IMG/VR virus record: IMGVR_UViG_3300030339_000018
Direction: 5' to 3' (one strand)
DNA: 64,000 nucleotides
Source of the DNA: a virus
Taxonomy: Duplodnaviria > Heunggongvirae > Uroviricota > Caudoviricetes
Notes under the pieces: model-generated
What the model was told of the DNA's origin: nothing
The model's input: only the letters and a program-made list of their open reading frames with translations
Database searches by the model: none
Program-made: the position numbers and the translations under genes
In this document: piece after piece, positions 18,553-56,689 of the stretch
How the letters are laid out: every line of letters starts with the position of its first letter
Position numbering within the stretch: position 1 is the first letter of the stretch

Positions 18553-20343
18553 TTATATTTTATTTAAATTAACATTTGAATGTCTAACTGTAACATTTCC
18601 AGTACTTGTTTGATTCATACAACCAAACCAAATATAATCTCCTACTGCAACATTTACTATCCCAGATGATGACATTCCAGAATAATCTGTTGATGTTTGA
18701 AATCTTCTAGATGCTACAATATTATCTAATGACGTTGCATTTTGAAATAATTCAAACTTAAATGTATCTGTGGAATTTGATGGGAATGCTGTAACACTAA
18801 ATGCTAAAACATATGCTGCATTTGAACCTGGATTAACCTGTAGAGTACTTCCCCTACTAACTGATCCTGTTCTAGTTGACGTAAATGCATGTGTAATATA
18901 ATATGAATTTATAGTTACAAATGTTACAGTATAAACTCCATTATAATCTACTGTACCAACCTGAGTTACTGGTTCTCCTGTAAGTAAATTATGTGGTGTT
19001 GTAGTTGTTATTAATACTGTACCAGGAATTGTTCCACTATAATTGGCTACACTTGCTATTGAAGCACTTGCTCCAATTTTAAATGTAAATCCAAGTAATG
19101 AACCAGCACCAAAATTATTAATAGAATGATAAAGATTTATATTAGTTATATTAGTTGCAATAGCATTTTCATATTGATACATTTCTCCATACAATACTTG
19201 CGTACCATTAATTCATTCAGTTCCATTATATCTAAGTACCTGATCAAAGACAGGAGCTGTAATTGTTACATCACTTAATCCAGTCAATTCATTATTTAAT
19301 ATAACTCTTACAAATAAAGTTCCTGCTGTAGCACTAATAACACCAACTCTACCAACTCTAATTACATATTGTAATGGATCAGTTGGTGGAGTCATAGTTA
19401 GTCCTCCAGCTACTGTAGGACTTAAATATACATTAGCTCCAGATACAAAACCTAAAGTATTTAAATTATGTACTACACCAATATTAGTAATTAAACCAGT
19501 ATCTCCAGGTAAAATATCCTGAGTAGCAACCCCAAGAACTGTGGATGTAGCTTCTGATGTTGCAATAGCTAAAGATATAGTACTAGTATCACTTACAAGA
19601 CCAGTAGAATAAACCACTTGACCATTAAGAATAGTTGAACCTGTATTATTAAAACATAATACTGTTGTTTCTTGACCTATTTGTAATGTAACATTTCCTG
19701 CAATCATTATAGCTGCTGTTTTATTAGGAGCATCATAATATAATCTTCCTTGGTCAAATGGACCAACAAGTGGTGCATTTCCAAGTTTAATTCCTTCATT
19801 AAAAGTTGGATAACCATTAATAATTGTTTGTGGTACTGTTTGATCTAATGTTAAATATGATCCTATATTTGCTTTTAATTGTAATTGATCATATAATAAT
19901 TTAGCACTTGGATATTGTACATCTGTTGATGCACCTGAAATAGAAACAACTTTATTAGATATATCTTCTTTTCCTGCAATAGCTGCACTAGTTATATAAC
20001 CAACATCATTTGTAAATGCTGATATTAAAGTTGGAATAGCAGCACTTGTTATAAAGCCACTATCATTTGTTAATTGTGATGTTAAAGTGGGTATAATAGG
20101 TTTACCAGTTAAACTGGCATAAGTTCCTAAAGTAGCTACAGGAGCTAATATAGGTTTATTAAGTATTTCTGCTACTCCAGAAATGGCATTTCAATCTGAA
20201 TTTACTTGAACTCCTCCAGAGCCAAGATTTAAATCATTTACAAATTGACTAAGAAAAGTAGGTCTATTGATTACATTTAATCAATTAATTTTTTCTCCAC
20301 CTAATCCTAGTAAAGTTATGTAGTTGGGGGTTTCTTGTGTCAT
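18553..20343 (-). CDS. tail fibre / receptor-binding-like structural protein, about 596 codons including three in-frame TGA codons (19213-19215, 20191-20193, 20281-20283)
   Basis: ATG at 20341-20343 follows a terminator hairpin. One frame is continuous through TNDxGxITSAAI repeats and Ser/Thr/Gly/Asn-rich sequence. ORF-track pieces 19213..19707 and 18553..19194 are in the same frame and separated only by a TGA. Confidence 0.6.
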
Positions 20344-20922: not shown

Positions 20923-21726
20923 TTAGACAATAGTAGTTCCTGTTACTGTTGGATGAATATGAGTTAAGATTGAACTTAACAGATATTGATTTTGAGCATT
21001 GTTACTAACTTGATTGTTAGCAGCAGCTAATTGATCTCTTAAATTTTGTACATTTAAGTCATTAATTAATGAACGTGTTGCATTTCCGTCAGAATTAATT
21101 AATGATTTAATTTCACAGCAACATTGAGCCATTGCAGCAGCATTTGCAGTTCCTTGAGCTATAATTTGATTAGTAGCATTTTGTGTTTGCATTGCAGCTC
21201 CATTAAAACCTTGTAACGTTGTAGTTGTTAGGTTATTAAATGAATTCAATTGTTGTAATGCATTTTGATTACTTTGTGCAGTAATGTCACGACCTAAATC
21301 ATTAATTCCTTGTAAAGTAGTAAAAGCTGATGTAGCTTGTGCTGTTGATAAATTAGCTACAGAATTTAGAATATTTGCAGCTCCACCATCTATTGCTGAA
21401 TTAACTCTACGAAATTCACTATTTAAGATACTATTTAAGTCACCAGAAGCAACTTGAGATCCTAAATTAGTAATTTGTGATTGTAATGATTGAAATGCTG
21501 GATTAAGAACTACATCAGTTGCTACTGCTGTTGCTGCTGGAGCTACATATCCTGCTCCATATCCTCCACCTCAACCACCACGTCCACCAAGTAATCCACC
21601 TGCTAACGCTCCACCTAATAATCCGGCGATTCCCCCGCCTAAAATTCCACCTCCTGTGCCTAAAGCGGCTCCTGAAGTTCCTGTTCCTCCCATTGCTGGG
21701 ATCATGCCATCTAATGTAAGTGCCAT
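20923..21726 (-). CDS. Gly/Ala/Asn-rich low-complexity structural protein with one in-frame TGA (21571-21573)
   Basis: ATG at 21724-21726 lies downstream of a TAcCTTTG motif (21764-21781). The frame reads MALTLDGMIPAMGGTGTSGAALGTGGGILGGGIAGLLGGALAGGLLGGRGG[TGA]GGGYGAGYVAPAATAV... and continues into ORF 20923..21249 with no other stop. Confidence 0.6.
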
Positions 21727-31425: not shown

Positions 31426-31963
31426 GTCTCAAACTATTCCAAATTTCTGAACAATACATAATTTGATTTTTACAATCATCAATAGGATTGTGAGGAACTC
31501 CAATAAAAACATGATTCTCTTTTACTTCTGGTTTAAAACTAACTAAAGTTCTAACATCACGTTCAAGAGTATATTTCCAAGGAATTTCTTTATAACCTGC
31601 AACATAATAAGCTTGGGCTAGAATACCTAAATCAAATCTATTACTATTACCCCATACTTTAAGATTAGCAGGATTTAAATTTGCAATAAAATCTCTAAAG
31701 TTATGTAAAACTTCTGTAAGATTTTTAGGATCTTTAAAAAGTTCTTGTTGAGCTTCTTTCGATTGTCCAAACCACCATTCTAATGTTCCTCCTTGTATAA
31801 ATAATCCCCTATCTAGACAAGATTGAATATCTATTTTTTCATAGAATTCATCTCCGGTTTCTCCGGTTTTAAGATCAAATAATACAGCTGCAACACTAGT
31901 TACAACACATCCAGCTTTATTACCTAATGTTTCAAGGTCTATCATTAAATTTGTTTTAGCCAT
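31418..31963 (-). CDS. DEDD-type 3'-5' exonuclease
   Basis: MIDLETLGN Exo I motif, later H..D motifs. Confidence 0.5.
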   Translation of the reverse strand: MAKTNLMIDLETLGNKAGCVVTSVAAVLFDLKTGETGDEFYEKIDIQSCLDRGLFIQGGTLEWWFGQSKEAQQELFKDPKNLTEVLHNFRDFIANLNPANLKVWGNSNRFDLGILAQAYYVAGYKEIPWKYTLERDVRTLVSFKPEVKENHVFIGVPHNPIDDCKNQIMYCSEIWNSLRHD

Positions 31964-34796: not shown

Positions 34797-34848
34797 TTAT
34801 ATTTTTATTGTACCCGGGCCGAGAATCAAACTCGGATTTGAACGTTAG

Positions 34849-34921
34849 TATGCAAGCTGCGAATCGAACGCAGGACACTCGGTTTAGAAAACCGATGCTC
34901 TATCCCCTGAGCTACAAGCAC
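34849..34921 (-). tRNA. tRNA-Arg (anticodon TCT); acceptor stem carries U.U mismatches
   Basis: D arm GCTCAGGGGATAGAGC, anticodon arm TCGGT-TTTCTAA-ACCGA, T arm CTGCG-TTCGATT-CGCAG. Coordinates approximate. Confidence 0.55.
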
Positions 34922-34924
34922 ATA

Positions 34925-35512
34925 TTACTTATCTTTAGGATAGCGAAATTCATTTCTTGCACTATTCTTATTCTTTGATTTAAATGTATCTAATTGAGAA
35001 TCACAGTTAGGACAAATACACCTATAATTTTCTCTAATGTTATTTGCTGCATCTCCATCAATATGATCTAATATTAAAACTAAATGTTTATTATTCCATA
35101 CAGAATCCATCCCACAAATTGCACATTTATTACCTTGTTCTTTAAGAATAAAAGGTTTTACAGTAGTAATACTATAATTACCTCTTTGATATTCTTTTGG
35201 AGAAGTAAGAAAATAATCATATAATTCTTTAGATTGAAATTCTTTTTGACATGTAATTCCACAATATTTTCTTTGAGTAGTTGTATCTAAAGGTTTTCCA
35301 CAATTTACACAAACTAAATCAGCATATTTATTTACACCTTTTCTAAATGTTTCAGATTCATTTATCTTTCTACGTTGTGGTAATTCAATTCCAAATTTTT
35401 TAGCAACTTTTCTTATATTTGAACCAGTGCAACCATAAGTTAAACCAATTGTATTATAAGGGATATTTTGTACTAAAATTAACTCCTCTAATTCTTCTTT
35501 TATATATTCCAT
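34925..35512 (-). CDS. HNH endonuclease with Zn-ribbon repeats
   Basis: ...LVLILDHIDGDAANNIRENYRCICPNCD... HNH motif; TAcCTTTG promoter-like motif at about 35529-35545 upstream. Confidence 0.5.
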   Translation of the reverse strand: MEYIKEELEELILVQNIPYNTIGLTYGCTGSNIRKVAKKFGIELPQRRKINESETFRKGVNKYADLVCVNCGKPLDTTTQRKYCGITCQKEFQSKELYDYFLTSPKEYQRGNYSITTVKPFILKEQGNKCAICGMDSVWNNKHLVLILDHIDGDAANNIRENYRCICPNCDSQLDTFKSKNKNSARNEFRYPKDK

Positions 35513-35630
35513 TTTTATTAATTATTTATACTACAAAGGTACAAATAATTTTTGATATAAAATAGTTTGAATTAGTTAATTTATGTTAAAAGTGTACTGT
35601 TCTATTCAGTTGAACTATCCAGGCATTTAG

Positions 35631-35701
35631 CAAGTACACTAGGATTCGAGCCTAGATCAGGAGTTTTGGAGACTCTTATGCTACCATTGAATCATATACC
35701 T
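35631..35701 (-). tRNA. tRNA-Trp (anticodon CCA)
   Basis: Anticodon loop CTCCAAA; T arm CTAGG-CTCGAAT-CCTAG. D arm is imperfect. Approximate coordinates. Confidence 0.45.
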
Positions 35702-36138
35702 ATTTTAATTAATATCACATATTAAAGCTTTTCTTTTTTCACAAACTCCATAATAAAATTTAAGATTTTTTAATCCTCTCAAATAAACATTTTGTCTTTG
35801 TGTATCATCCCAATGAATTACAATTTTTGATTTTATAGTTTTATCTGTAATCCAATAATTTGGTTTATTTTTAATATATTCAATAAAATGTTTAATACAA
35901 TTTTTTGCCCATATTAAACTCTTTAATCCATCTTTTCCAGTTACTTTTAAAAATTGATAACCTTCTTTTCTTTTACCAATTTGTAATTTAACATAATACC
36001 AATCACATTTATTAGTACTATCACATTCTAATTCTAAAAAAAGAATTTGACCTGCTTCATTTTTAGTAATATAATAATAAATATCTTTATATTTATTATT
36101 AGGTTTTAATACAATTTCATACATATTATTAATTTTTG

Positions 36139-36219
36139 TACATATAGCAGGACTCGAACCTGCACGCCCCTACGAGCATCGGAGTCTAAACCCGATATGT
36201 CTACCATTCCATCATATAC
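36139..36219 (-). tRNA. tRNA-Leu (anticodon TAG), type II
   Basis: Anticodon loop TTTAGAC, long variable arm GCTCGTAGGGGCGTGC, T arm GCAGG-TTCGAGT-CCTGC. Confidence 0.6.
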
Positions 36220-36226
36220 GCATTTG

Positions 36227-36299
36227 AGCCAAAGGTGGGGCACGATCCCACAACCCTCTCATTACAAGTGAGATACTCTACCAATTGAGCTACTTCGGC
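36227..36299 (-). tRNA. tRNA-Thr (anticodon TGT)
   Basis: GCCGAAG acceptor, D arm GCTCAATTGGTAGAGT, anticodon arm TCTCA-CTTGTAA-TGAGA. Confidence 0.65.
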
Positions 36300-36435
36300 A
36301 ATTTTAGAGGGTCACTATTAACCTCTTTGATGTTGTTTCTTCTTATTCGTACACGTGTTTGAAATTCAGACTGGACTACATTTCTTTACCAGATAGTTTT
36401 AAATATATAAGACTAATGAAAACCTATATATCTTG

Positions 36436-36522
36436 CGGAGAGTACCGGATTCGAACCGATGTGCCCTGTTACAGGCCACTAGTTTAGCAAACTAGCACGA
36501 TAAACCACTCTGCCAACTCTCC
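36436..36522 (-). tRNA. tRNA-Ser (anticodon GCT), type II
   Basis: GGAGAGT/ACTCTCC acceptor, anticodon arm CTAGT-TTGCTAA-ACTAG, long variable arm, T arm ATCGG-TTCGAAT-CCGGT. Confidence 0.65.
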
Positions 36523-37073
36523 AATACATTACTTATGTTGCATATGATAGTGTTTAACTCTCAAATCAACTTTACTTTGTTTTAATTTACTATTAGCAAA
36601 TAAGTTATAAACAGGTTCTTCTAATATGTGATGAATAACATATATAGGAAAATTTAATATATCTATACCAATACAATATTTAACTATCATATTTTTCTTG
36701 CAAATTTATGAATCAACCATCCAAAAACTAAAACAGCCCCTATTATAATTCCAATAATAATTCCAATTCCTATTTTAAACATTATTTTTTAATTTACGTT
36801 TTTGACCATGATATTTAATTTCAATCATAAATATTCATAAGTGACCTTCTTTTTTTTTCCAATCATCTCCATATGATAAACCGCATTAATAGGTCTATCT
36901 TCAATTATACAAACTCCATTCCCAATATAATTATACGATCTTGCATACATTTTATCATTGGTGGAATCTCTAATACATATTTCTTTACCTTTTAAATACT
37001 GCCAATTAATTATAACATCATTACATAATTGATGAAAACTTCCTTGAACTATTTGCATATTATTTAATTTTTG

Positions 37074-37161
37074 GGTGAAAGGTGGGATTCGAACCCACAT
37101 TAGTCATTACAACATTCCTGATTCACAATCAGGTCGGCATCCCTTACCGGCTACAATCACC
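37074..37161 (-). tRNA. tRNA-His-like (anticodon GTG), non-canonical: two U.U pairs in the acceptor stem and about 18 nt between the anticodon and T arms
   Basis: Anticodon arm CCTGA-TTGTGAA-TCAGG, T arm GTGGG-TTCGAAT-CCCAC, possible G-1. Confidence 0.35.
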
Positions 37162-37171
37162 ATATAAAAAG

Positions 37172-37254
37172 TGGGACATGATGGAGTCGAACCACCCGAG
37201 TCCGAAGACAACTGCTTTACAGGCAGTCCCGCTACCCCTACGGTATAACATCCC
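37172..37254 (-). tRNA. tRNA-Tyr (anticodon GTA), type II
   Basis: Anticodon arm ACTGC-CTGTAAA-GCAGT, long variable arm TTGTCTTCGGACTCGG, T arm GGTGG-TTCGACT-CCATC. Confidence 0.6.
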
Positions 37255-37554
37255 ATATAATAGTCTTTCCTATCAGTCATACTTCCTTTAAATTCTGTTT
37301 AGATAATTCATCCTAACGGCAAAGCAGTATTGTATAAACCAGTATTCTTTAAAATTATGCTTGTACCGGAGTATTAGCTTCTTTAATTTTTTCAGCAATT
37401 TTAGTATTAACTGCTTTTAAATTTGCTTGTGCTTGTTCAACTGTAACTATTTGATCATAAGCTAATGCTTTTAAATCATTTAATGACATTGTATCAAGAT
37501 TTACTTGTTGTTCATTCATTGTTTTAATTTTGACTATTATTTATCTCTTTTTAT

Positions 37555-38031
37555 TTATCTTACATTTATAATATTACTAAGTGTACCTTTACTACTAATA
37601 TTATATTTTAACATTAAATCTTTATAAGAATATCCAGAGTCACGATCAGCTTTAATTTCTATAACTAATTCATCTGAATATTTTTTATGTGCATTAGAAG
37701 CTTTATTAATTCTTATTTCTTTAGATTGATCCATCATATTATCACTATGTGTACCTATTTTAAGATTATCCCAAGAATTATTTAAAGAATTACTATCCAT
37801 ATGTCGAATCATTATATTTTCTTTATAAATTTCTTCTCCAAATTTTTGATATGCTTGTAATCTATGTACTCTAACTTTAATAGTTTTACCTAGTAATTTT
37901 GTACTAATAGTTTTATAACCATTATTAATTGTGCCTAATAAAATTTTTCCAGATTTACTAATGCATGTACCATCTTTTTCAACTTTGTACCCTAAATCAA
38001 AAAGTACTTTTTCATAATATGTATATTCCAT
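37555..38031 (-). CDS. HNH_3-family homing endonuclease
   Basis: ...VHRLQAYQKFGEEI...IRHMDSNSLNNSWDNLKIGTHSDNMMD... It is preceded directly by a tRNA-like gene. Confidence 0.5.
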   Translation of the reverse strand: MEYTYYEKVLFDLGYKVEKDGTCISKSGKILLGTINNGYKTISTKLLGKTIKVRVHRLQAYQKFGEEIYKENIMIRHMDSNSLNNSWDNLKIGTHSDNMMDQSKEIRINKASNAHKKYSDELVIEIKADRDSGYSYKDLMLKYNISSKGTLSNIINVR

Positions 38032-38044
38032 ATAATAATTTAAG

Positions 38045-38127
38045 CGGAAGAAGTAGGTCCCGACCCCAAGATGTTTCCGTCCGTACAGATTTCAAGTCTG
38101 TCTTGCTACCTAAGCAATTCATCTTCC
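38045..38127 (-). tRNA. tRNA-Ser-like (anticodon TGA if minus strand), type II-like with aberrant T arm; possibly a pseudo-tRNA
   Basis: Acceptor GGAAGAT/TTCTTCC, D arm TTGC-TTAGGTA-GCAA, perfectly palindromic anticodon stem ACAGA-CTTGAAA-TCTGT. No canonical TTCRA T loop. Confidence 0.3.
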
Positions 38128-38206
38128 ATTAACGAGATTGCTTTGAACCTCTAAAGTCAACCTATATTGATACATATAGGATTTTAGTCTTTCTGGAGAA
38201 AGAATA

Positions 38207-38992
38207 TTATTTTTTAACTATATTTAAAATATCATAAAATTTACACCATTTTCTTATAGCATTATCTGTAACACCATAAAATTTACCAACAGCAACAAAT
38301 GAAATTAATTCTTTAAATTTAGATATAAGTTCTTCAGAAGTAGGTCTTTTACTACCATTAATTTTGTGTGAACATTCTTGAGAACAACATTTATTTTTTC
38401 TAGATTTACCAATTAATTCTTTATTACAGTATAAGCAATATTTAGGAATAATTTCTTTAATTTCTTTAACTTTAATTTCTTTAATTATTTCAATTGGAAT
38501 AATATTTTCATTCACAATAAGACTTTCTTCTTTTTTACCTTTACCTCTATAATTATCAGTAAAAGCGTGACAATTAGGGCATAACATTTGTAAATTTTCA
38601 ATACAATGATTAGTATTTACTCCATCAATATGATGTAATTCTAAAGGAATAGGTTCTTCCATTCATTCAGTATTATTACATTTTTCACATCTATATTCCT
38701 TAATACCTTCTTTTAATAATCTTTTATTTAATTTTGATGTAGAAAAAGTAGAATAAGATACTAAAATTTCTTCAATTGGTTGGGCAAATTTAATTTGTGT
38801 ATATCTTAATCCAACATTCCATACTTGCCCAGTAAAATGATCTGTATTTAAATCATATTCTTTAATTTTAGCATGAATTGTTTTGTAATTTCCTCCAACT
38901 GCTTTTAATCCTATTTGTCGGCATACTCCAGCAATAGATAAATTTTCTTTTACTGCAATTCTAATTTGTTCTTCTGTGTACTTAGTTCTCAT
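38207..38992 (-). CDS. HNH homing endonuclease with N-terminal HTH and C-terminal DNA-binding module; single gene containing an in-frame TGA at 38663-38665
   Basis: ORF-track pieces 38663..38992 and 38207..38662 are in one frame. TGA lies between YRCEKCNNTE and MEEPIPLELHHIDGVNTNHCIENLQMLCPNCH, so the CxxC...HH...N...CxxCH HNH motif spans the TGA. TAcCTTTG promoter-like motif at about 39009-39025. Confidence 0.6.
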
Positions 38993-39074
38993 TTTTATAA
39001 TTATTTAATACACAAAGGTACTAAATAATTTTGAGTCTACCAAATCGAATTATGTTAAAATATATTAAAAATAG

Positions 39075-39155
39075 TACCCGTAGCAGGAGTCCAACCTGCA
39101 CGCTTTTAGGCGCTCCCGCTTAAAAGGAGTGTGTCTAGCATTTCACCATACGGGT
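39075..39155 (-). tRNA. tRNA-Leu (anticodon TAA), type II
   Basis: ACCCGTA/TACGGGT acceptor, anticodon arm CTCCT-TTTAAGC-GGGAG, variable arm CGCCTAAAAGCGT, T arm GCAGG-TTGGACT-CCTGC. Confidence 0.55.
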
Positions 39156-39209
39156 ATTAATTGATTATTTTATATATAATCATAGTTTTAAGAACCATTC
39201 GTTCTTTGT

Positions 39210-39280
39210 TGTCCCATCTAGATTCGAACTAGAGCTATTTGAGTCAAAGTCAAATGTGTTAGACCACTACACTATGGAAC
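39210..39280 (-). tRNA. tRNA-Gln (anticodon TTG)
   Basis: Anticodon arm TTTGA-CTTTGAC-TCAAA; T arm CTAGTTCGAATCTAG. Confidence 0.6.
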
Positions 39281-39548
39281 AATATTATTTTTCTATGCAG
39301 TAAGTGCTTAGACTTGCCTATCATACCTATCAGAATCATTTAATCTGGCACTAATCTTGGTTAGAAAAATTTAATTTAAAGGTACTGAATATCTTAACCC
39401 ACCAGTACAGTCTCAATTCAATTGTATCGCTGTATACGAATACCTTCATGAGGATGGAAGAATTGCTCACACGTTACCTTTATATTGTAAGAATATCATC
39501 ATTAGAAATACAATAAATTGTATTTCATCACACTACTATATTCTTGAG

Positions 39549-39619
39549 CGGGAAGTGTAGGAATCGAACCTACGCCTATTGATTAACAGTCAACTGCTCG
39601 ACCTTCGAGCTAACAACCC
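39549..39619 (-). tRNA. tRNA-Asn (anticodon GTT); acceptor stem with two U.U pairs
   Basis: D arm GCTCGAAGGTCGAGC, anticodon arm GTTGA-CTGTTAA-TCAAT, T arm GTAGG-TTCGATT-CCTAC. Confidence 0.55.
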
Positions 39620-39742
39620 AGTTTATAATTTTTGCTTACCATCGCTTCACTGTTAAAATTACAAAAATACATCAGTTACCATTATCGTTGTTTCTGCATC
39701 AACGCTTCATCCGAAGAGGTCTATAGTCGGTTACTATAACTG

Positions 39743-39816
39743 AGCGATAAGTGGGTCTCCAACCCACAACCTCCGACTTGGAAGGACGGCACTCTAAGCA
39801 ATTGAGCTATTATCGC
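39743..39816 (-). tRNA. tRNA-Gly (anticodon TCC)
   Basis: GCGATAA/TTATCGC acceptor, anticodon arm CCGTC-CTTCCAA-GTCGG (one U.U), T arm GTGGG-TTGGAGA-CCCAC. Confidence 0.5.
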
Positions 39817-40248
39817 ATTTTAATTTAATACTATATCAGGGGTTTTCTATTGTACATTTAGCGAGCTCCCTTATACACATCATGACTAAATTCATGTTAT
39901 TTCCATTTTACAGAAACTATAATATTAAATTATTTTATTAGTTGTAATCTATCAAAGATTAAACCATTATTTTCTATTGCTATGGCTGTAATTGTGCCAC
40001 ATAAATCTGGTTCATGAAATTCAGAAAATGTATATCCATTGTTTGCTAACTTTGGAATCCATTCATCTAAATTTGCTGATAAAAAGAATAAATAGTTGTT
40101 ATTCCATTCTTGTGTTTCTTTATTATCAAGGAGGAATTGTGCTACTGCATGTGCTCCTTGGACACATCCATATACGCTATTTAATCTATTATTAATTAAT
40201 ACGTATAGTTTTCTTTCTTCTACTTGTTCCATTATTATTATTATTTTG

Positions 40249-40320
40249 TGCACCGCCCCAGACTTGAACTGGGAACCTATCGGTTAAAAGCCGAGAGCTC
40301 TACATTGGAGCTAGCGGTGC
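40249..40320 (-). tRNA. tRNA-Lys (anticodon TTT)
   Basis: GCACCGC/GCGGTGC acceptor, anticodon loop CTTTTAA, T arm CCCAG-TTCAAGT-CTGGG. Confidence 0.6.
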
Positions 40321-40481
40321 GAGTTTGTTGGAATAGGCAAATCACCAACTATGATACATGCATTGAAAAGAATCACTTTTACTAATTGTATCTTTCACAT
40401 AAAAGTAGATAATGTGATTAGCATTAAACGTACTTTTTCTATACTAAGTGATGTAGCAGAGCAGTTTATTAAACTGTTGTG

Positions 40482-40553
40482 TGAGCCTAATAGGAGTCGA
40501 ACCTATATCCCAGGATTCGTAATCCTGTGTTCTATCCATTGAACTATAAGCTC
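40482..40553 (-). tRNA. tRNA-Arg (anticodon ACG)
   Basis: Anticodon arm CAGGA-TTACGAA-TCCTG, T arm ATAGG-TTCGACT-CCTAT. Confidence 0.6.
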
Positions 40554-40563
40554 TCATTAATTG

Positions 40564-40636
40564 TGACCTCTGCTGGATTTGAACCAGCGACACCTAGATC
40601 TTCAATCTAGTGCTCTACCAACTGAGCTAAGAGGTC
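40564..40636 (-). tRNA. tRNA-Phe (anticodon GAA)
   Basis: GACCTCT/AGAGGTC acceptor, D arm GCTCAGTTGGTAGAGC, anticodon arm CTAGA-TTGAAGA-TCTAG, T arm GCTGG-TTCAAAT-CCAGC. Confidence 0.7.
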
Positions 40637-40683
40637 AAGCAAGATTTTTACTTCTAGGAAGAAATACCTTGAAAAAGAACCGT

Positions 40684-40753
40684 TGCGATATCAAGAATTG
40701 AACTTGAATCAAATGGATATGAGCCAAACATTCTACCATTGAACTATATCACA
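40684..40753 (-). tRNA. tRNA-Met/Ile2-type (anticodon CAT), elongator-like
   Basis: Acceptor TGTGATA/TATCGCA, anticodon loop CTCATAT, anticodon stem with two U.U mismatches, T arm TCAAG-TTCAATT-CTTGA. Confidence 0.5.
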
Positions 40754-40754
40754 G

Positions 40755-40828
40755 TGGGGAAAATAGGACTTGAACCTATGACCTCCCGGGTATCAGCCGG
40801 ACGCTCTAACCAACTGAGCTATATCCCC
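40755..40828 (-). tRNA. tRNA-Ile (anticodon GAT)
   Basis: D arm GCTCAGTTGGTTAGAGC, anticodon arm TCCGG-CTGATAC-CCGGG, T arm ATAGG-TTCAAGT-CCTAT. Confidence 0.65.
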
Positions 40829-41164
40829 ATTATTTTTCTAAATATTGGAATATAAAAATCTATGGATTGTATATCTTTTCTATGAATAGATACTTTATAA
40901 TTATCATATCTTTTAGATGTATTAGGTTGTCCAATTGGATCTTTCCATATTCTAAAATCTTTCATTACAAAATTTATGTATTCTCCTTCAAATACAACAT
41001 CTATTGGATAATGATAATACTCATTCATACCACTAGGTTTTAATTTATGTAGTATAATCCAACAAATTCTTTTATTACTTAATAATCTTGGTAAACTTTT
41101 AAAAACTTTTCTTGTCATTTGGATGTATTTTATTAATTAATACTGTCCGCCATTTTAATAATTT

Positions 41165-41239
41165 GAGCTCATACTCCGATTTGAACGGAGGAAATATTGG
41201 TTTTGCAGACCAACGCGTTAGACCACTTCGCCATATGAG
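41165..41239 (-). tRNA. tRNA-Cys (anticodon GCA)
   Basis: GCTCATA/TATGAGC acceptor, anticodon arm TTGGT-CTGCAAA-ACCAA, T arm TCCG-TTCAAAT-CGGA. Confidence 0.65.
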
Positions 41240-41402
41240 CATTTAAAAATTCAGTTCTTGCATAAGAAATAATAAACGTTAATTAGTTTTTTGTACGGGA
41301 GTTACACCTATTTATTATATTTACACAAACTAACTTATGCCTAAGTAAATAGCCCACTATATACGCTTCCACTATTTGTTTGCTTCAATCTGAATTTTAT
41401 TG

Positions 41403-41535
41403 TTGCGAGCGCCGGATTCGAACCGTGTCTCGGGGTTATAGCTTTATTCTATTCTAAAATAAATTTTAGTTTGAACATTTCACAGACTTTTAAACCTGTA
41501 TGAGCCCAGTGAGCTACCATTGCTCCACCCTCGCA
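41403..41535 (-). tRNA. initiator-like tRNA (anticodon CAT, GGG/CCC anticodon stem) interrupted by an intervening sequence of about 62 nt in the anticodon loop
   Basis: 5' half GCGAGGG-TG-GAGCAATGGTAGCTC-A-CTGGG-CTCATA..., 3' half ...CCCCG-AGAC-ACGGTTCGAATCCGG-CGCTCGCA. Between them lies about 62 nt of AU-rich sequence with the hairpin CTAAAATTTATTTTAG. Confidence 0.4.
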
Positions 41536-41549
41536 TCTGTTATATTTTG

Positions 41550-41622
41550 TATAAGCGGTGAGACTCGAACTCACGACCACATGCTCCCAAAGCATGCATT
41601 CTACCAACTGAAATACGCCTAT
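41550..41622 (-). tRNA. tRNA-Pro (anticodon TGG)
   Basis: Anticodon arm CATGC-TTTGGGA-GCATG, T arm GTGAG-TTCGAGT-CTCAC. Confidence 0.6.
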
Positions 41623-41729
41623 ATTTAATTAGAAATCCAATTTTTCAGGATCTTTGAAAGATAAAAACTCATTTGCGAATAATAATCCGTTCTTTAAATA
41701 AATATCTTGTTTCATATCTAAATCATTTG

Positions 41730-41802
41730 CAGTACTGATGGGAATCAAACCCACTAAATCTCGATAGACAGTCGAGTGCACCAATCGTTATGCGCCAGTA
41801 CT
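41730..41802 (-). tRNA. tRNA-Asp (anticodon GTC)
   Basis: AGTACTG/CAGTACT acceptor, anticodon arm CTCGA-CTGTCTA-TCGAG, T arm GTGGG-TTTGATT-CCCAT. Confidence 0.6.
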
Positions 41803-41808
41803 ATTTTT

Positions 41809-41882
41809 GTAATCGGTATCGGATTCAAACCGATGTTACTTCATAGAAGGTGAAGTGTGCTAGGTCACTGCACTAACCGATC
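41809..41882 (-). tRNA. tRNA-Glu (anticodon TTC)
   Basis: D arm GTGCAGTGACCTAGCAC, anticodon arm CTTCA-CCTTCTA-TGAAG, T arm ATCGG-TTTGAAT-CCGAT. Confidence 0.6.
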
Positions 41883-42806: not shown

Positions 42807-43441
42807 TTTATACTATTTTATATAGTACAAAGATAATAAAAATATTTGGTTAGGACAATAGAATTTCAAAATTAATTAAAAATAAGTTTAATGGATAAGT
42901 TAATCAAAAATATAAATATCTAACACGAGTTAAATATTTATATTTCTAACCAATTATTCGATAGGGATGTGAAAATTATACCTATTGTAGTAGGTATAAT
43001 TTATATAAAGTACCATCAATTGCTTCTAGTAAATCATCCAGAATAGCATGCATATGTGTGTATTTTGCATCTATAACATCATATCTATTTTCATAGATCA
43101 TTTCTTTTATACCCTCAAGATACTCTGTTGCAGTTAATTTATATCCATAAATTAAACTACTAAGATCATACTCTACTACTTTTTGTTCACAGCCCTGATA
43201 AACCTCTATTAATCTATCTGCAATTTCAGGAACTTCTTGATAAAAATCATTTAATGCTAAATGTTTAATACCAGAACTTGCTCCTTGGATTTGTAAATGT
43301 TTGATATGTGACATCGTCCCTATGGAAACTATTGTTCCAAAAAAACTTTCAGGTTTTGTTTTAATTTTACCCATATTTTAATATTTTTTATTATTTAATT
43401 ATCTTAATCTGTACAAAACTTTAATTCTTTTTCTATTTTTA

Positions 43442-43981
43442 TTAGAATACATTATTTTTTAAATACTGATTATAAACATAAGCAGCATGTAATTCACAGA
43501 TAAAATATCCTAAAAATATTTTTCTTTTTAATACTGAATCCCATATATTAGATAGCCATTTCTTCCTAGTTTCTACCCAACATACACCTGTATATTGAGA
43601 TGAAGTATTAGTTCTAACATACCCATCACTTACATTATATCTATTAGAAACAATTTCCAAATTATCTAAATAATTATTTAATTTATTCCCATCAATATGA
43701 TTAATAACAGTAGTTCTTTTATTTACTATATAATCAAGAAAAGACATAGCAACTAAAATATGAATACAATAACTTTTTCTAATTTTATTTTTTGTAAGAT
43801 TTACAGATAAATAATTAGTTCCACATGGTTTTAATATTTTATCTTTTTTAGCTTTATTATTACCTAATGATAATATATTACCAAAATTACTACATTTATA
43901 TAATCCTTCAAATGTAGGTATATCTTTCCAAATTTCTTGCATATTTTCCTTTGTTTTATTTAATATGCAAAGATACAACAT
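43442..43981 (-). CDS. HNH endonuclease fused to an AP2-like DNA-binding domain; true start probably an internal ATG near 43942
   Basis: ...INHIDGNKLNNYLDNLEIVSNRYN... followed by YTGVCWVETRKKW (AP2 YxGVxW). TAtCTTTG promoter-like motif at about 43973-43988. Confidence 0.5.
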   Translation of the reverse strand: MLYLCILNKTKENMQEIWKDIPTFEGLYKCSNFGNILSLGNNKAKKDKILKPCGTNYLSVNLTKNKIRKSYCIHILVAMSFLDYIVNKRTTVINHIDGNKLNNYLDNLEIVSNRYNVSDGYVRTNTSSQYTGVCWVETRKKWLSNIWDSVLKRKIFLGYFICELHAAYVYNQYLKNNVF

Positions 43982-44030: not shown

Positions 44031-44762
44031 TTACTGTTCATTTGTTGGTTTAAGCCAAAGTTTGGTATGTTTAAAAATATACAACTTTAAATCCCTATAT
44101 TTACACAACATTTCTAAAGTTTTAAATGTATCAAACTTAAAACATTTGTATAACTCTTCACGAATACGTTCTTCAGACACAACTCCCATTTTGTATTCAT
44201 AATCATAGTTCTCAATAACTTCTTGCATATTTGCTGGAATAGCTAAATTTTTAGTTAATGCAAAACGAATAGCTCTTAAAATTCTAAGGGGATCATCATT
44301 AAATGTTACATTACATGGAAGAGGTGTTCTAAGAATTCTAGCTCTTAAATCAGCTTCTCCATTAAATGGATCAATAATATTTCCATCTTCATCTTTAGCC
44401 ATAGCATTAACTGTAAAATCCCTACGTTCAAGATCATCATATAATGAACCAGGTACAATAATAGGTGTACGAGTTCCAGGTATATAACCAATTTCCTTAC
44501 GTGCCATTACAAAATCAGCAACACCTTTATATTTATGTCCTACTGGAAATTTAGCACGAATTGTATAACAATCTTTAGTTACTAAAAATATTTCAAACAT
44601 ATCTCTTCTTAAGATTTGTTCCAATAAAATAAACATATCACTAGCTTTACTATGTGAAGCAAGTAATATATCATTTGGAACAGCAACATAATCGACATCT
44701 TTATTTACTAATCCAAGAAATTCATCTCGAATCTTACCACCTACTTCATAGAATTTAAACAT
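44031..44762 (-). CDS. minimal class II nucleotidyltransferase (CCA-adding enzyme / poly(A) polymerase head domain)
   Basis: VGGKIRDEFLGLVNKDVDYVAV, i.e. the GGxxRD...DxD head-domain signature; 243 aa. Confidence 0.55.
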   Translation of the reverse strand: MFKFYEVGGKIRDEFLGLVNKDVDYVAVPNDILLASHSKASDMFILLEQILRRDMFEIFLVTKDCYTIRAKFPVGHKYKGVADFVMARKEIGYIPGTRTPIIVPGSLYDDLERRDFTVNAMAKDEDGNIIDPFNGEADLRARILRTPLPCNVTFNDDPLRILRAIRFALTKNLAIPANMQEVIENYDYEYKMGVVSEERIREELYKCFKFDTFKTLEMLCKYRDLKLYIFKHTKLWLKPTNEQ

Positions 44763-50622: not shown

Positions 50623-50648
50623 AATAATTTATTTTATGTTATTAATTG

Positions 50649-50725
50649 TGGTATTAGAAAGATTCGAACCTTCAACCTCGTACCTTGCGGGTTTAACGTG
50701 CTCTAACCAATTGAGCTATAATACC
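50649..50725 (-). tRNA. tRNA-like gene with canonical acceptor, D and T arms but a non-canonical 25-nt anticodon/variable region; identity undetermined
   Basis: GGTATTA-TA-GCTCAATTGGTTAGAGC-A-[CGTTAAACCCGCAAGGTACGAGGTT]-GAAGG-TTCGAAT-CTTTC-TAATACC-A. No 5-bp stem plus 7-nt loop can be drawn in the bracketed part. Confidence 0.4.
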
Positions 50726-53700
50726 AAAAAAAAGTTGTTTAATAATAAGAAATATAGTTAATGCTAGAAATAAAGTTAAAGTCAAAGACCTCTTTTACAA
50801 CAAAGGCAAAGACAAAACACAAAGTTATCATAGGTATACCTATGACGTTTTTTTTGAATTTTATAAAGTTCGTAAAAGAGCGGTTTAGTTTTGATTATTT
50901 TATCATTATTGTTACCTTAACAAGGTAATGCTTATGCAGCATTGAGTAGATATCCCACGAGGGGATGAATTTGGTTCTTATTATTAAACATAAAAGATAA
51001 GTGCATCGGCTTATGCTTATCACTTATCTACCTTTAATTAAAATTTAAAAAGTTTTTTTGGTGCTGAATCAACTACAATCTCAATCTTAATTGGTTCTTG
51101 TACAGGTTCTGCATCTTTAATTTTAAGTACTAAATCAAGAGCAATTGCAAGTTCTCTATCATTATCACCACTATCATCAGAAATATTAAGAGTTGCATAT
51201 TTAGTTTTCCAATCTTCGGAAATAACTTCATAAGTATCTGATTCAGTTACTATAGGTATTTCTCCTTGAAAATCTACAACAATTAATGGAATATAAGAAG
51301 CTGAATAAATATGTTCATGGTTAGTATCTAAATAATGATCATATTCTGTCCATTGACCTTTACCTACTAATACTTTATCATCTCCGGCATCAAAATCATG
51401 ATTTGGAGGAATAACTAAAATATAATCAGCTTTATCAAGAGTATCAAAAGAATATTTACCTCCTTCAAATTCAAGAACTTCACAATCAAATCCAGCAAGA
51501 TAATCCTGAACCATACGAATATGGTCTGGATCACCTGCTTTAGACTTACATAAATAAATTTTAAGTATCATTATACAGTAACTTTAACTAAAAATTTATC
51601 AATGATTGGTTGAAACAATGGATCAACAGTAATACGTAAAGCAGCTAATTTCTTAATTGTTTCTTGGCGTTCAATTTCAAATTCTGATTCAATTTTAGAA
51701 CATGCATCATTATAATCACGCATTTCATCATTGTAGTCAGTATTTAAAACTTTATTAATGTCATTAACTCTAAAAGTTTCATCGGCATTTAATTTAGCTA
51801 TTCGAGCATTTTCAGTTGTAACTATAGTTTTTACTTTAGCTTTAAAATAATTTGTTCTTTGTTCATATTTGCGATGAATAATAGATAATTTTTCATGTAA
51901 AGATTGTAACTCTTCAGCTGTATGATTAGCAGTAATAATTACTGGACTCTTAGTTCCGGCAACAACATCAATCCATTCAATTGAAGGAAGTTTATTTAAT
52001 TCATCTCTTAATTTCTCAAGAATAGAACCTTTATGAATAAATTGACCAATATGAGCAGCAAGTGCTTCAACTTGATAAAATTCATTCATTTCTTTCACTG
52101 AAAGTTGTTCCCAACCCCACTCTTCATTTACATTATTAAGTAAATGAGACATTGAATATAAAGGACGAGGTACTATTTCAACAATAGTTAAATCAGGTTG
52201 TTCATTTTTAGCAGCCATCAATAAGCGTTCTTTTGTTTTAAGATTTTCTATCAAAAAAGCTTGACAACCAGTTAGTAATCCTTTTTCTTCCAACATTTCA
52301 ATCACATTAACCGGCATTACATTTCCTTTTTGCAAAGTATGTGTAATAGTACCAATTACTATAGTTTTAGATGCTGTGTTTACATTTTTTAAACAATTTG
52401 TAATATCTAATGCTCTTTGATTACAAAGATTAGATATTGATTGAGCTTCTGACATACTCAATCCTTTTTCTGATAATGAATGCTTTCTCATTTTATTTTA
52501 AGTATTTAATTTTTTTTCAATAAGTTGTTTTATAGTATCTTCAGGTGAAGATAATCCAGTTAATCCAGATATAGCACATCCAATCTTTCGTGCTGTATCA
52601 GCACATTCTCTTTTAACATAAGCTATTTCTTTTAATGCACTTCCAGCTTTCTTACGGCTTTCGTATTCTGCTTGATTAGTATTATAAAAAGCCAATGCAA
52701 TATCCATAGCACGTTGTCGTTCTTCAACTAACAATTGAAGTACTTCTTCTTTGTTGTATAATTGCTTCTCTGGGCCTACAAATATATCCCACATGTTTTC
52801 AATTTCACTACCTACCAATGAATCTTGTCTTCTATAAGAAGGCATAATCAATCTAGTATTCAGTTCACGCTCTTTCAAAGATAATTCCATATTCCACCAT
52901 TTAATGGCAGTCATTCTATTTCCTGACATTATTTCTTTAGTTTTAAAATTGAATCTTTATCAATAACAGTTTTAGTATAAAATGAGCCAGCTCTAACACC
53001 TTCATAATCTACTTGAACATATTTCATTGCCACATTTTCAACGCAATCATCAATACCTTGATTATATGCATCATCTTGAATCTCCTGAATCATTAAAACA
53101 TAATCATCATAGCCAAAGTCGCCTTTCATGATTTGTTTCATTGCGTATTTTGCGGGATTTATCATTTTATTAATTTTTAAATTAGTTAGATTCTCAGGTT
53201 CGAACTGAGCTTTACCAACACTATGTCGGTCTGTGCACTAATACACTAAATCAATAGGAATGTCAATCCCTCCAACAGTTTCTATCTGTAATAGTGATTT
53301 TCTCGGATAGAAAATTTACAAAAGAATTCTATTTTATACGTATAGATACATATTCTTATTCATAACCAACCTTTAAGAATGGAACCAACATGAATATACA
53401 TGCTCAACCTATTTTGACATAACAGGATTTTTATTTTTTAATAGAAAATGATTTTAATTCACCAGTTTCTATACATTTTTGTACAAATGTAATTTTATAA
53501 ACTTTACCACGTTTATTACTAAATTCTACTCGTTCTTGAATAGAAAAAGTAGGCTCAATTGGTGGAAGTCCTATCCAATAAGCTTTACCACAATGTTTAC
53601 AACGTTGGTAGCCTTTTGCATCAAGATAATCATATTCATGAATATGAAAAATACTATTAAGTAAGATCATTTTTTATTTAGTTTTATTTATATAAAAATT

Positions 53701-53983
53701 TATAATTTGTTTAAGTTCTTCTTCATCTGTTGCTATAACTAATTTATCATATCCAAATAATCCAAACATTCTATAACCACGACATAATATATATCCTTTA
53801 TAATCAATACCATTATATTGATATTTATGTTCTAAAATAAAATATCCTATATTAGTATTAAATAACCATTTTAATATTTTCATAATTAATTTTTTATTAA
53901 TTTAAAAATGGAATAAGTGGGCTTCACAGCAGACTTATTCACGAACTCAAAAACACTATATCATTAATCAAATGATTGTATAG

Positions 53984-54400
53984 TGGAAATGGTGGGAGTC
54001 GAACCCACGTCTTCCTCAGGAATCCATAATAAAATTTTACAGCTTAGCTTTTACAGTTGCTTATCTGCTATTTCTTGAAAAGAAACATTGAAATAACATG
54101 GGACTGTTTGGTTACAAACAGAACACCACCAGTACGTGTAACGTACACTTTAACAACCCTCAGTAAGGAGGCGATGTATTACAATTGTTCTTAGTAGGAA
54201 CATGACTATTACTCAATTATTGAATAATAAGGTCAATTGACAACCCCATTGGATATTATGCTGCTACAGCGTAAGCTGTGCGACTACCAAAAATAAGCGA
54301 TTTAACGTTTTCTTTTATTGTTTTGATCTCTGATTAACGAGGGTGGTCTACCTCAGCTGTTTTACTATTTATCTACTGCGAATCAATACCAAGCATTCCC
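53984..54400 (-). ncRNA. ssrA: tmRNA (ssrA)-like RNA, about 417 nt
   Basis: 5' GGGAATGCTTGGTATTGATTCGCAG... resembles the tmRNA 5' end (GGGG..GAUUCG). 3' end is ...GTGGG-TTCGACT-CCCAC-CATTTCC-A. Acceptor GGGAATG/CATTTCC includes a G3.U70 pair. Internal ORF ...GGT AGT CGC ACA GCT TAC GCT GTA GCA GCA TAA encodes ...TAYAVAA*, about 110-145 nt from the 5' end. Confidence 0.6.
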
Positions 54401-56689
54401 ATATTTAATAGAATTATATAATCTGACTCCTATTCTTGTTATAGTCTACCAGATAGTATCTTTTATAATTTAGAGTATATAGTATATAATTTTAATTTTT
54501 AATAACCGAAACAATTTACATAAGGATCATCATCAAAATCTTGAGTATTAAGATCATCTAATACATCACTTTCTTTTTTTAATTTCATACTTTTTATTCT
54601 TTAAAAGCTATAATTGTTCCATAAACTATCATTTTAACATTATCATATATAAAAGTAAAATGATTATTCTGAGAATGTACATCTATACATCCTTTCCATT
54701 CTCTAATAAGAAAATTACCATTATATAAACGAATACAATAAGTTGTATTATTTTTAGATGGTATATCATAAATTCCTCTATAAGAATTTGTAATTTCTGG
54801 AGAACAAGAAATCATAGAGATTAAAAATAATAAAATAATTAGTTTTTTCATATTGTTTTAAAGTTTAATTTAAAAAATTCAACGTTGCCAATGATCACAT
54901 CTAAACAGACATCACATAGTCCATCAAAATAATAATCATGACTTCCACATACAGGACATCTCATAATGTTTTTAATTTATTATATTTTAGTTTTATTTTT
55001 TCCTTCAATACAACATTCTACATTTAATACTTCTTTTATACAATTTCCATTATGGAAATGAGAAGGAATATCATTTGTTTTTATATAATATTTACATTTA
55101 GTACATTCTTTAGAACCAACTTTACAATTATAATACTTACATTTAATTTTTAATATATATTGATGATTAAAAAAGAATACATTGGTTCCTGGCCTTGTAT
55201 CTATCTCCATTTTAAAATCTATTTTATCTATTCTTCTATTCCTATATTTTTTAATAAGTAATATTTCTATAATATAATATATTAATAAAATAAATCCAAT
55301 AAAAGAAAGTACTGAAAATATAGCTCCATATTCATCTTGATATAGTCTTTTATTATTTACTTTAAGATATATTTTATTTAAAATATAAAATAACATCGGA
55401 TTTAGTATTAATGTAAATAATATATATATTAAAAATATTATAAATGCTATTTCTTCCATATTTATAGATTAATTTATTTTTTTTAGCACCCTTTTATCAA
55501 TAGGATTACCTTTCAATGGCATATGATAAATTAGGGTCATGCTGAGAACTCATTAGTATTGTTAGGATTTAATTTTAGACTGTGAAGTTTAACTATTTTC
55601 CTCGCTACTTTCTCTACAACTTTCTCAAGGTTGCAATACTTCTAGGATTACTCCATTACTTGATATATTGCAGATTTTACAGCAGCAATAAGTCATTCAT
55701 TTAAGCAGTTATATCCTGCATAATATCCTGTCTTCAGGATTAGTATCTTTATGTATTTGTAGGTCTAACCTACTATAGCAATTTCTATCAAAGCGTTAGC
55801 TCAAGTCTTCTACATACAAAGGTATTCAATGTTTAACCTTTAAATTATTAACCTGTTCTTCCAAGGTTAGCATTAACGACCACAGACCATAGTACACTTT
55901 GGATTCGTCAGTTAATAATTTATTTATTATGCAATTTGTGCTAAATATTTTTCATAAGTAGCAATACTTTTTTCTTCAGCTTCAGTTCTACGTTTAGCTT
56001 CTTCTTTTAAAGAAGTAATAGTTGATTCAACTTTTTCAACTTTGTACAATGCATTAGCAATAGCACCTTGCCATTCGCTTTTTACATAAGCAACACGTTC
56101 GTCACGACTAAGTTTTTCAACACTAATATTCAAAAATGCTTCTTCATAAGCCACTTGTGCATCACTAGCATATTCTGCTTGTGCTTCCAATTCTTCACTA
56201 AGATTAGTAGCTATTTTTGCAATATTTGCTTTAGCAACTGAAATAGCCTTAGTCCAAAGTTGTTTTGCTGTGTTTTGTACAGCAATTACATTAGCATCAT
56301 CACCACCTTTAACAAATGCAATAACACGTTCTACGAAAGATTTTTTTTCTTCACTCATTTTTTTTGTTTTTAAAAATTTAATTTATAATTCAATAATTGT
56401 TGGAAAATATTTTTCTATATCTACAATTTCAGATATAATAGGTTTTGGTAATAAAGTATTAGAAATAAAAGGGAGATATTTTAATAAAATATGTCTATTA
56501 TTTCTATTTAATGGGCATTCAGAACAACGTACACTTCCACATGTAATTAGAATATCTTCTACTAATATTTCATAATAACTACAAATAGATTTATCTGGGT
56601 TTTCTAAAGCTTTTTTAAGAGATTCTGAATTTTTAAAAAAATCTATAAAATTATTATTTTTTATAGCTGTATTAACATCTAAAAGCATT

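Follow-up and report, generated by a model that had tools for sequence, protein, structure and literature searches.

Genes for transfer-messenger RNA (tmRNA; ssrA) have been catalogued in phages for two decades; a role of these RNAs in infection has never been demonstrated. Examples come from the cluster C mycobacteriophages and Bacillus phage G (PMC4131195, PMC12484599) as well as from metagenomic huge phages (PMC7162821). They were found in 402 of 18,146 phage genomes (2.3%; PMC9004378), which agrees with the remark, made in a preliminary description of the DNA studied here, that tmRNAs are rare in phages. This DNA, a stretch of 64,000 nucleotides (nt) from a virus of the Caudoviricetes (IMG/VR record IMGVR_UViG_3300030339_000018), was analyzed at its full length and is referred to as the window. 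The preliminary description had pointed to a 417-nt segment of the minus strand with tRNA-like termini as a phage-encoded tmRNA gene. Our analysis indicates that this segment is probably a functional one-piece tmRNA gene, carried by an uncultivated jumbo phage with a GC content of 27% and a genome of at least 168 kb.

To locate structured RNAs, we scanned the whole window with all Rfam families. The sole non-tRNA match was to the tmRNA family RF00023, at positions 53981-54400 of the minus strand, with a score of 75.5 bits (gathering score 47) and an E-value of 1.6e-27. The alignment was untruncated, spanning model positions 1-374 of 374. ARAGORN with thresholds lowered to 95% (option -ps), a program that the preliminary description had named as a check, called a tmRNA that agrees in its ends and in the tag. 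The molecule (420 nt with CCA) has a GC content of 37%, compared to 27% for the window, and its sequence is identical in all four other assemblies compared; note that these strain copies are 99.7-99.9% identical overall, so that the identity of their tmRNAs is uninformative. The segment 54400-53984 is thereby confirmed as a complete one-piece tmRNA gene, well beyond a chance match, and the tRNA-like termini and other features listed for it at the outset were found in place. As judged from the sequence, the gene has the defining features of RF00023, apart from stem 2 of pseudoknot 1 (PK1) and the partners of the RNA. Coordinates of all features are collected in Table 1; nucleotides of the tmRNA are numbered such that nt t corresponds to window position 54401 - t.

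We first describe the tRNA-like domain (TLD). Acceptor helix P1 joins nt 1-7 to nt 410-416 with 7 of 7 pairs, the third being the G3.U414 wobble, and is followed by the discriminator A417. This is the pairing of GGGAAUG with CAUUUCC, including a G3.U70 wobble and a terminal A, that had been proposed before, and the canonical T arm proposed with it is present as well. A D-loop analogue had also been reported. Such an element exists, but the GAUUCG that had been pointed to is displaced: the Rfam model places the analogue at UGGUAUUGA (nt 10-18), aligned to its uGGaUUCGA at high posterior probability, and GAUUCG overlaps the 3' end of UGGUAUUGA and extends into the 5' strand of helix P2. P2 consists of three segments. 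P2a (nt 19-27 with 380-388) has canonical pairs at 7 of 9 positions, P2b (nt 33-41 with 367-375) has nine A-U or G.U pairs, and P2c (CAGC/GCUG, nt 42-45 with 358-361) has 4 of 4 pairs. P2b rests on the Rfam alignment, cofolding and the minimum free energy (MFE) fold, while its register in the direct pairing test was one base off; the P2 part of the Rfam alignment carries four non-canonical marks. The unconstrained MFE fold (-102.7 kcal/mol) recovered P1, the T arm and P2b/c unaided.

We next consider the mRNA-like part. The reading frame for the tag, as called by ARAGORN -ps and read directly, has 18 codons encoding ENVKSLIFGSRTAYAVAA and is closed by UAA at nt 143-145. It includes the frame ...ACA GCU UAC GCU GUA GCA GCA UAA (TAYAVAA*) given in the preliminary description, with the stop at 54258-54256. 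In trans-translation, the frame is set by the segment from -6 to +1 around the resume codon (PMC3985003). Here the resume codon is GAA at nt 89, preceded by AAUAAAA, which places U at -5, A at -4 and G at +1, in agreement with this requirement; the resume consensus reported by ARAGORN -ps is aataaaaGAAaacgttaa. The tag ENVKSLIFGSRTAYAVAA is absent from the list of known tags of ARAGORN. Its C-terminus, YAVAA, resembles the ClpXP-type degrons of bacterial tags, as far as can be read from the peptide. Since the tag stop is UAA, suppression of TGA would leave tag termination unaffected. Downstream of the tag, up to the 3' strand of P2, there are several stable hairpins. A PK4-like candidate in this part is a 9-bp stem (nt 303-311 with 327-335), aligned by Rfam to the last hairpin of the model, whose loop CUUUU can pair with AAAAG at nt 349-353 (5 bp).

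All the sequence elements needed for tRNA-like and mRNA-like functions are present and intact. The steps beyond these elements are inferred from the established trans-translation pathway (PMC3985003). The tmRNA would be transcribed as its own short unit, ending at a downstream hairpin and U run. This terminator-like hairpin (-12 kcal/mol, z-score -3.93) was matched in stability by 0 of 200 shuffles; a consensus terminator scanner that needs at least 3 G-C pairs gave no call for it. A promoter-like ATAACA-18-TATAAT upstream is a mere candidate, promoter-like matches being no commoner here than in shuffled sequence. Both ends would then be trimmed, and CCA added by a host enzyme or by the CCA-adding-type enzyme of the phage. 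Host AlaRS would charge the tmRNA with alanine via G3.U70 and A73. Together with EF-Tu and with SmpB, the latter presumably from the host, the charged tmRNA would enter ribosomes stalled without a usable A-site codon. The ribosome would switch to the tag frame at GAA, append (A)ENVKSLIFGSRTAYAVAA and end at UAA, leaving the ribosome freed and the product with a C-terminal YAVAA. The likely benefit would be extra ribosome-rescue capacity in infection, beside the 21 tRNAs of the phage.

The proposed CCA addition concerns the phage tRNAs as well, as CCA is encoded by none of the 21 tRNA genes of the window. An open reading frame (ORF) of 243 residues matches the PolyA_pol head in Pfam (2.8e-15) and CCA tRNA nucleotidyltransferase models of NCBIfam (~1e-27, model positions ~2-230). 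This CCA-adding-type enzyme could supply the CCA of the tmRNA and of all 21 tRNAs. Beyond this ORF lie a NUMOD4/HNH_3 homing endonuclease (43442-43981, minus) and then a 130-residue ORF with no family match (42982-43374, minus). The gene of the CCA-adding enzyme may be split by the mobile endonuclease, or else the enzyme may be a shortened one.

We then looked for related tmRNAs. Neither blastn nor megablast matched the tmRNA to any of 50,697 phage records, and the whole phage had no nucleotide-level match among the same number of deposited phage genomes. IMG/VR contained no match to patterns built on the 5' end, on the tag, on the two ends together or on the PK1 region; the 3'-end pattern alone retrieved unrelated tmRNAs that have just this 3' end in common. 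In metagenomes, the matches listed for the 3'-end pattern included at least about 25 candidates for one-piece tmRNAs, of which ARAGORN confirmed 23, and at least 51 tRNA-like matches. Some of the listed tmRNAs sit on contigs of 250-360 kb beside many tRNAs. By nhmmer, no similarity was detected for any of them, and global identity reached 65% at most among the matches listed. The molecule with this value, L153, has GGGAAUGC, GCUGAGG..GACCA and GAUCAAA in common with the tmRNA studied; it was rejected as a true relative on the basis of the 65% overall identity and the missing nhmmer match. Another of the retrieved loci, L129 (JGI Ga0206103_100014, a 358-kb contig), has a 10.5-kb stretch with 24 tRNA genes and a tmRNA at 9067-9456, with the tag ANATKADLALAA; this tmRNA starts with GGGAAUGCUUGGU, like the one studied, and is otherwise unrelated. 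Several contigs of 240-330 kb among the matches listed also carry the 3'-end motif, in at least one case (L142) in a permuted tmRNA.

These searches bear on the origin of the segment. The ssrA gene is a frequent target of integrative elements, which then carry its 3' end (see also PMC9004378), and the segment might on that account be host DNA, either an attP/ssrA fragment from integration into a bacterial tmRNA gene or the product of a chimeric assembly. However, the gene is there with its two ends and its entire body rather than as a 3' fragment, Pfam scans of the window ORFs detected no integrase domain, and the junctions are identical in several independent assemblies. Moreover, the 23-nt 3' end occurs in just 2 of 185,579 species genomes, two Clostridia metagenome-assembled genomes whose tmRNAs have GGGGAUG acceptors, unrelated bodies and an AKNNNNFALAA tag. 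We consider a host origin of this kind extremely improbable. The GC content of the tmRNA, below that of most other tmRNAs recovered, points to long residence in the phage rather than recent capture. The window sequence is also found on a 168,189-nt ENA contig and many metagenome contigs at 99.7-99.9% identity, with the tmRNA at the same location and unchanged in independent assemblies. The full contig of at least 168 kb is listed as ENA ERZ27249832 k141_1775190 and JGI 3300029998 Ga0302271_10000029. By its gene content and size, the carrier is an uncultivated jumbo-phage lineage with a genome of at least 168 kb.

Several findings weigh against a functional tmRNA, in addition to the uninformative identity of the strain copies. 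The preliminary description had tied its proposal of a phage-encoded tmRNA to a significant covariance-model match and to the P2/PK1 architecture. The proposal is supported by the significant match to RF00023 together with the formation of P2. PK1 stem 1 is formed as well (UGAGG/CCUCG, nt 46-50 with 59-63; 5 bp, intact), but PK1 stem 2 (GACCAC/GAGAUC, nt 53-58 with 71-76) is degenerate, with 4 canonical pairs broken by C.A and A.A. Rfam marks the pairs of stem 2 as non-canonical, though they are located where the model expects them, and pseudoknot enumeration gave no better alternative with at least 4 pairs in the PK1 region. PK2-PK4 are candidates only: between the tag and P2, the Rfam posterior probability is low and there is an 80-nt insertion. 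The fold of the whole molecule is modestly better than that of shuffles (z-score -2.19). ARAGORN at default settings reported 20 tRNAs and did not call the tmRNA, which falls just under the default threshold. The genome reads CUA, not CCA, after the discriminator, a weak point that implies post-transcriptional addition of the unencoded CCA end. SmpB (PF01668) was unmatched in the 72 window ORFs of 90-300 residues, the larger ORFs scanned and the genes of a 10-kb left flank, a search covering ~74 kb (the 64-kb window plus the flank) of the genome of at least 168 kb. Finally, the failure to find a related tmRNA deprives every helix of covariation support and makes purifying selection unmeasurable, which is the main weakness of the evidence.

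The degenerate PK1 stem 2, the sub-threshold default ARAGORN score and the lack of a phage SmpB among the window ORFs of 90-300 residues scanned would also fit a decaying or repurposed tmRNA, acting as a non-tagging decoy: by titrating SmpB, AlaRS or EF-Tu of the host, it would dampen host trans-translation. Tagging by host tmRNA can harm viruses that have an unassigned stop codon in their genes (PMC6207430), and the TLD-only molecule of mycobacteriophage DS6A, for which such a role has been suggested, provides a precedent (PMC4131195). In contrast to what a decoy would need, the RNA is full-length with P2 formed, whereas DS6A kept the tRNA-like domain only. The correct resume context, the open 18-codon frame, the hydrophobic Ala-rich ending and the UAA stop are all intact, and an mRNA-like part in this state speaks against a simple tRNA-like decoy such as that of DS6A. 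A non-tagging molecule thus appears quite unlikely, and we retain the functional tmRNA as the preferred reading.

The preliminary description had further assumed that the phage depends on read-through of TGA. This premise holds: there are five in-frame TGA codons in three genes, and two of these codons align to a conserved Trp in homologues. ORFs of at least 50 residues in code 11 cover 86% of the window, and most gaps hold tRNAs or the tmRNA. One gap falls inside a 596-codon frame that is interrupted by three TGA codons only; the encoded product resembles annotated tail proteins and is identified as a tail fibre on this basis. TGA codon 51 of this frame stands opposite the W of QVNSDWNA..ILNKP in all four alignments with a residue there, from three phages (Dulem virus 41, the tail fibre of Ralstonia phage RSL1 and the tail protein of crAssphage cr50_1). 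TGA codon 377 stands opposite the W in YYNGTYWTN of MW202796, the one well-matched homologue; others, poorly aligned, show I, F or I. The remaining two codons are in a gene for a Gly-rich protein and in an HNH endonuclease gene, the latter split in two by standard-code gene calling. The TGAs of the tail-fibre and Gly-rich genes are identical in three independent assemblies. To judge from these alignments, TGA is decoded as Trp in at least the tail-fibre gene.

The use of TGA is partial. Elsewhere Trp is encoded by TGG (214 codons in 95 ORFs) and 15 window ORFs end at TGA, on which grounds we rejected a host using code 4 throughout. Such partial use matches the pattern of recoded phages, with recoded codons in a structural gene and none in replication genes. 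No tRNA with a UCA anticodon or other TGA suppressor was present among the 21 window tRNAs, even at relaxed ARAGORN thresholds. The tRNA-Trp of the phage has the anticodon CCA, and the reader of the in-frame UGA is not visible in the window. Likewise, no release factor (RF) domain, including RF1, and no TrpRS domain was detected in the window, which covers 64 kb of at least 168 kb. We also considered back-up stops following the ORFs that end at TGA as a sign of suppression, and rejected them as evidence because they are not significantly enriched (10 of 15 versus 33 of 80, p 0.09).

These results raise the question of whether the tmRNA forms part of a code-switch toolkit of the phage; a functional link between the tmRNA and TGA had been proposed, and marked as speculative, in the preliminary description. 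Suppressed UGA stops of host and early genes would be read to mRNA 3' ends, or ribosomes would stall at UGA when the suppressor is limiting; the tmRNA with its own, unusual 18-residue tag would then clear the read-through or stalled ribosomes and absorb the rescue load of UGA suppression, or it would compete with and displace the host tmRNA in a recoding lifestyle. Besides the decoding of TGA as Trp, the 15 ORFs ending at TGA and the closure of the tag by UAA, not UGA, speak for this idea. Nonsense-suppressor tRNAs cause read-through that gives rise to substrates of tmRNA (Ueda 2002, cited in PMC3985003). At unassigned stop codons, the action of tmRNA is strong enough to limit or block the propagation of viruses (PMC6207430). 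However, the connection is circumstantial, a co-occurrence in one genome. tmRNAs are also carried by phages not known to be recoded, the cluster C mycobacteriophages and Bacillus phage G (PMC4131195), and tmRNA goes unmentioned in the main survey of recoded phages (preprint 10.1101/2021.08.26.457843). The absence of a TGA suppressor tRNA, RF1 or TrpRS near the tmRNA or elsewhere in the window, and the lack of significant enrichment of back-up stops, count against it as well. In the literature searched, we found no paper linking a phage tmRNA to stop-codon recoding. The idea is plausible but, on balance, unlikely.

Nevertheless, ribosome rescue as a buffer for stop-codon suppression is a testable idea, undiscussed in the recoded-phage literature searched. 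A single case does not establish it. If true, code switching in phages would include ribosome rescue, a component not recognised so far.

With regard to the surroundings of the gene, essentially all ORFs of the window are on the minus strand. A neighbouring gene encodes a widely conserved 306-residue protein. About 2,000 homologues of it are encoded on metagenomic contigs, which reach 640 kb in length; it had no tblastn match in the 50,697 phage records. At 80 IMG/VR loci with homologues of 43-53% identity (related jumbo phages), no tmRNA was found within 10 kb. In a relative whose 306-residue protein is 55% identical, the gap upstream of the gene contains a group I intron (RF00028, 84.7 bits), at 8980-9326 of contig L092 and also on L093 and L094, with no tmRNA within 10 kb there. 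The contigs of an 85% identical relative (L088-L090, from ENA soil and other metagenomes, three samples) all end at most ~65 nt upstream of the 306-residue gene, before the position of the tmRNA; the region may be variable or hard to assemble in this relative. No homologues were found for the 69-residue ORF downstream. A tRNA-Leu(tag)-like structure was reported by ARAGORN at 53185-53255 (minus) with lowered thresholds only; it lies inside the ORF-free gap 53166-53430, ~730 nt downstream of the tmRNA.

The 21 tRNA genes (20 from ARAGORN plus one tRNA-Asp from Rfam) lie in the intervals 34848-41882, 50648-50725 and 35630-35701, with no stop-codon tRNAs. The gene content further includes a Toprim primase, a DnaB-type helicase, a NAMPT and NMNAT-NUDIX pair, RNase H, HNH/NUMOD homing endonucleases and the tail fibre. 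The 362-residue ORF at 3488-4576 (minus) matches just the first 70 of 255 positions of the DnaB_C profile, and this helicase gene may be interrupted (by an intein, intron or homing element) or truncated. The NAMPT gene adjoins a NUDIX and weak cytidylyltransferase-like (NMNAT-type) gene (26736-28160 and 28975-29868, minus), which suggests a phage NAD-salvage pair. An Rv2179c-like 3'-5' exoribonuclease is encoded near this pair (31418-31963, E-value 7e-52).

Table 1. Positions in the window of the tmRNA gene, its parts and signals, and of other genes discussed in the text.
Feature	Position	Strand	Details	Source
One-piece tmRNA (ssrA) gene	53984..54400	minus	417 nt to the discriminator	Rfam RF00023, ARAGORN
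Acceptor stem, 5' strand GGGAAUG	54394..54400	minus	carries G3 of the G3.U70 alanine identity pair; 7/7 pairs with 53985-53991	
Acceptor stem, 3' strand CAUUUCC and discriminator A	53984..53991	minus	CAUUUCC at 53985-53991; A at 53984	
T arm GUGGG-UUCGACU-CCCAC	53992..54008	minus	5/5 pairs	Rfam, also unconstrained MFE fold
Helix P2, 5' strand	54356..54382	minus	nt 19-45	
Helix P2, 3' strand	54013..54043	minus	nt 358-388	Rfam alignment, cofold, pairing test
PK1 region	54325..54355	minus		Rfam, pseudoknot enumeration, pairing test
Tag reading frame	54256..54312	minus	resume codon GAA 54312-54310; stop UAA 54258-54256	ARAGORN -ps, direct reading
P5-like hairpin covering the final codons of the tag, immediately ahead of the stop	54260..54284	minus	nt 117-141; -10.2 kcal/mol, z-score -2.26	
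Candidate PK4	54048..54098	minus	9-bp stem UGUUAUUUC/GAAAUAGCA and loop pairing	
Terminator-like hairpin GAAUAAGU...ACUUAUUC, then U run	53904..53942	minus	~45 nt beyond the tmRNA 3' end	
Promoter-like ATAACA-18 nt-TATAAT	54413..54442	minus	10/12 consensus; ends 12 nt upstream of the mature 5' end	
CCA-adding-type tRNA nucleotidyltransferase, N-terminal half (putative)	44031..44762	minus	243 aa	Pfam, NCBIfam
Tail-fibre gene, 596-codon frame	18553..20343	minus	in-frame TGA at 20283-20281, 20193-20191, 19215-19213	
Gly-rich protein gene	20923..21726	minus	one TGA at 21573-21571, context GGRGG[TGA]GGGYG; extension fills a code-11 gap	
HNH endonuclease gene	38207..38992	minus	one TGA at 38665-38663, context CEKCNNTE[TGA]MEEPIPLELHHIDG	

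Compared to bacterial one-piece tmRNAs, the phage molecule has the same G3.U70, discriminator A, T arm, long P2, U-5/A-4/G+1 context and Ala-rich tag with UAA, in the same order (TLD, P2, PK1, tag, helices, P2, TLD). The typical one-piece tmRNAs recovered in this analysis measure ~350-370 nt, whereas the present one is phage-encoded, 417 nt long and of 37% GC. It differs further in the degenerate PK1 stem 2, the GGGAAUG acceptor, the unlisted 18-codon tag and the resume codon, which is GCA in the Rfam consensus and GAA here.

Among phages, the cluster C mycobacteriophages (Bxz1, Catera and others) and Bacillus phage G likewise are large lytic phages with a complete ssrA and many tRNA genes, and their tmRNA gene is also placed in a gap without coding sequence, flanked by small ORFs of unknown function. 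In contrast, there is no sequence similarity by blastn, the tag of phage G is AKLNITNNELQVA, and stop-codon recoding is unreported there. The metagenomic huge phages (Al-Shayeb et al. 2020, PMC7162821) are likewise uncultivated and large, with tRNAs, a tRNA-maturation enzyme and tmRNA. SmpB is reported in huge phages by this survey, in contrast to the ~74 kb searched here. The survey called tmRNAs by default ARAGORN, which misses the present gene, and no relatives of this gene were seen in the phage, IMG/VR or sampled metagenome collections. Surveys built on ARAGORN may thus undercount phage tmRNAs. The marine myophage Melnitz (PMC9004378) also bears ssrA, proposed to maintain the hijacked translation machinery. 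However, the Melnitz tmRNA is two-piece and circularly permuted, with a glutamine riboswitch, whereas the present one is of the standard one-piece type and has no riboswitch match in Rfam.

With respect to recoding, the closest counterparts are the TGA-to-Trp phages (Agate, Jade and other clades; Borges et al., preprint 10.1101/2021.08.26.457843), which likewise have TGA in structural genes, TGA-free replication genes and a large genome with tRNAs. These phages are from gut microbiomes, and some carry a suppressor tRNA, RF1 or TrpRS, in contrast to the window studied. In conclusion, the gene is a divergent tmRNA of an already documented phage kind, of interest for being missed by default ARAGORN and for belonging to a TGA-recoding jumbo phage.

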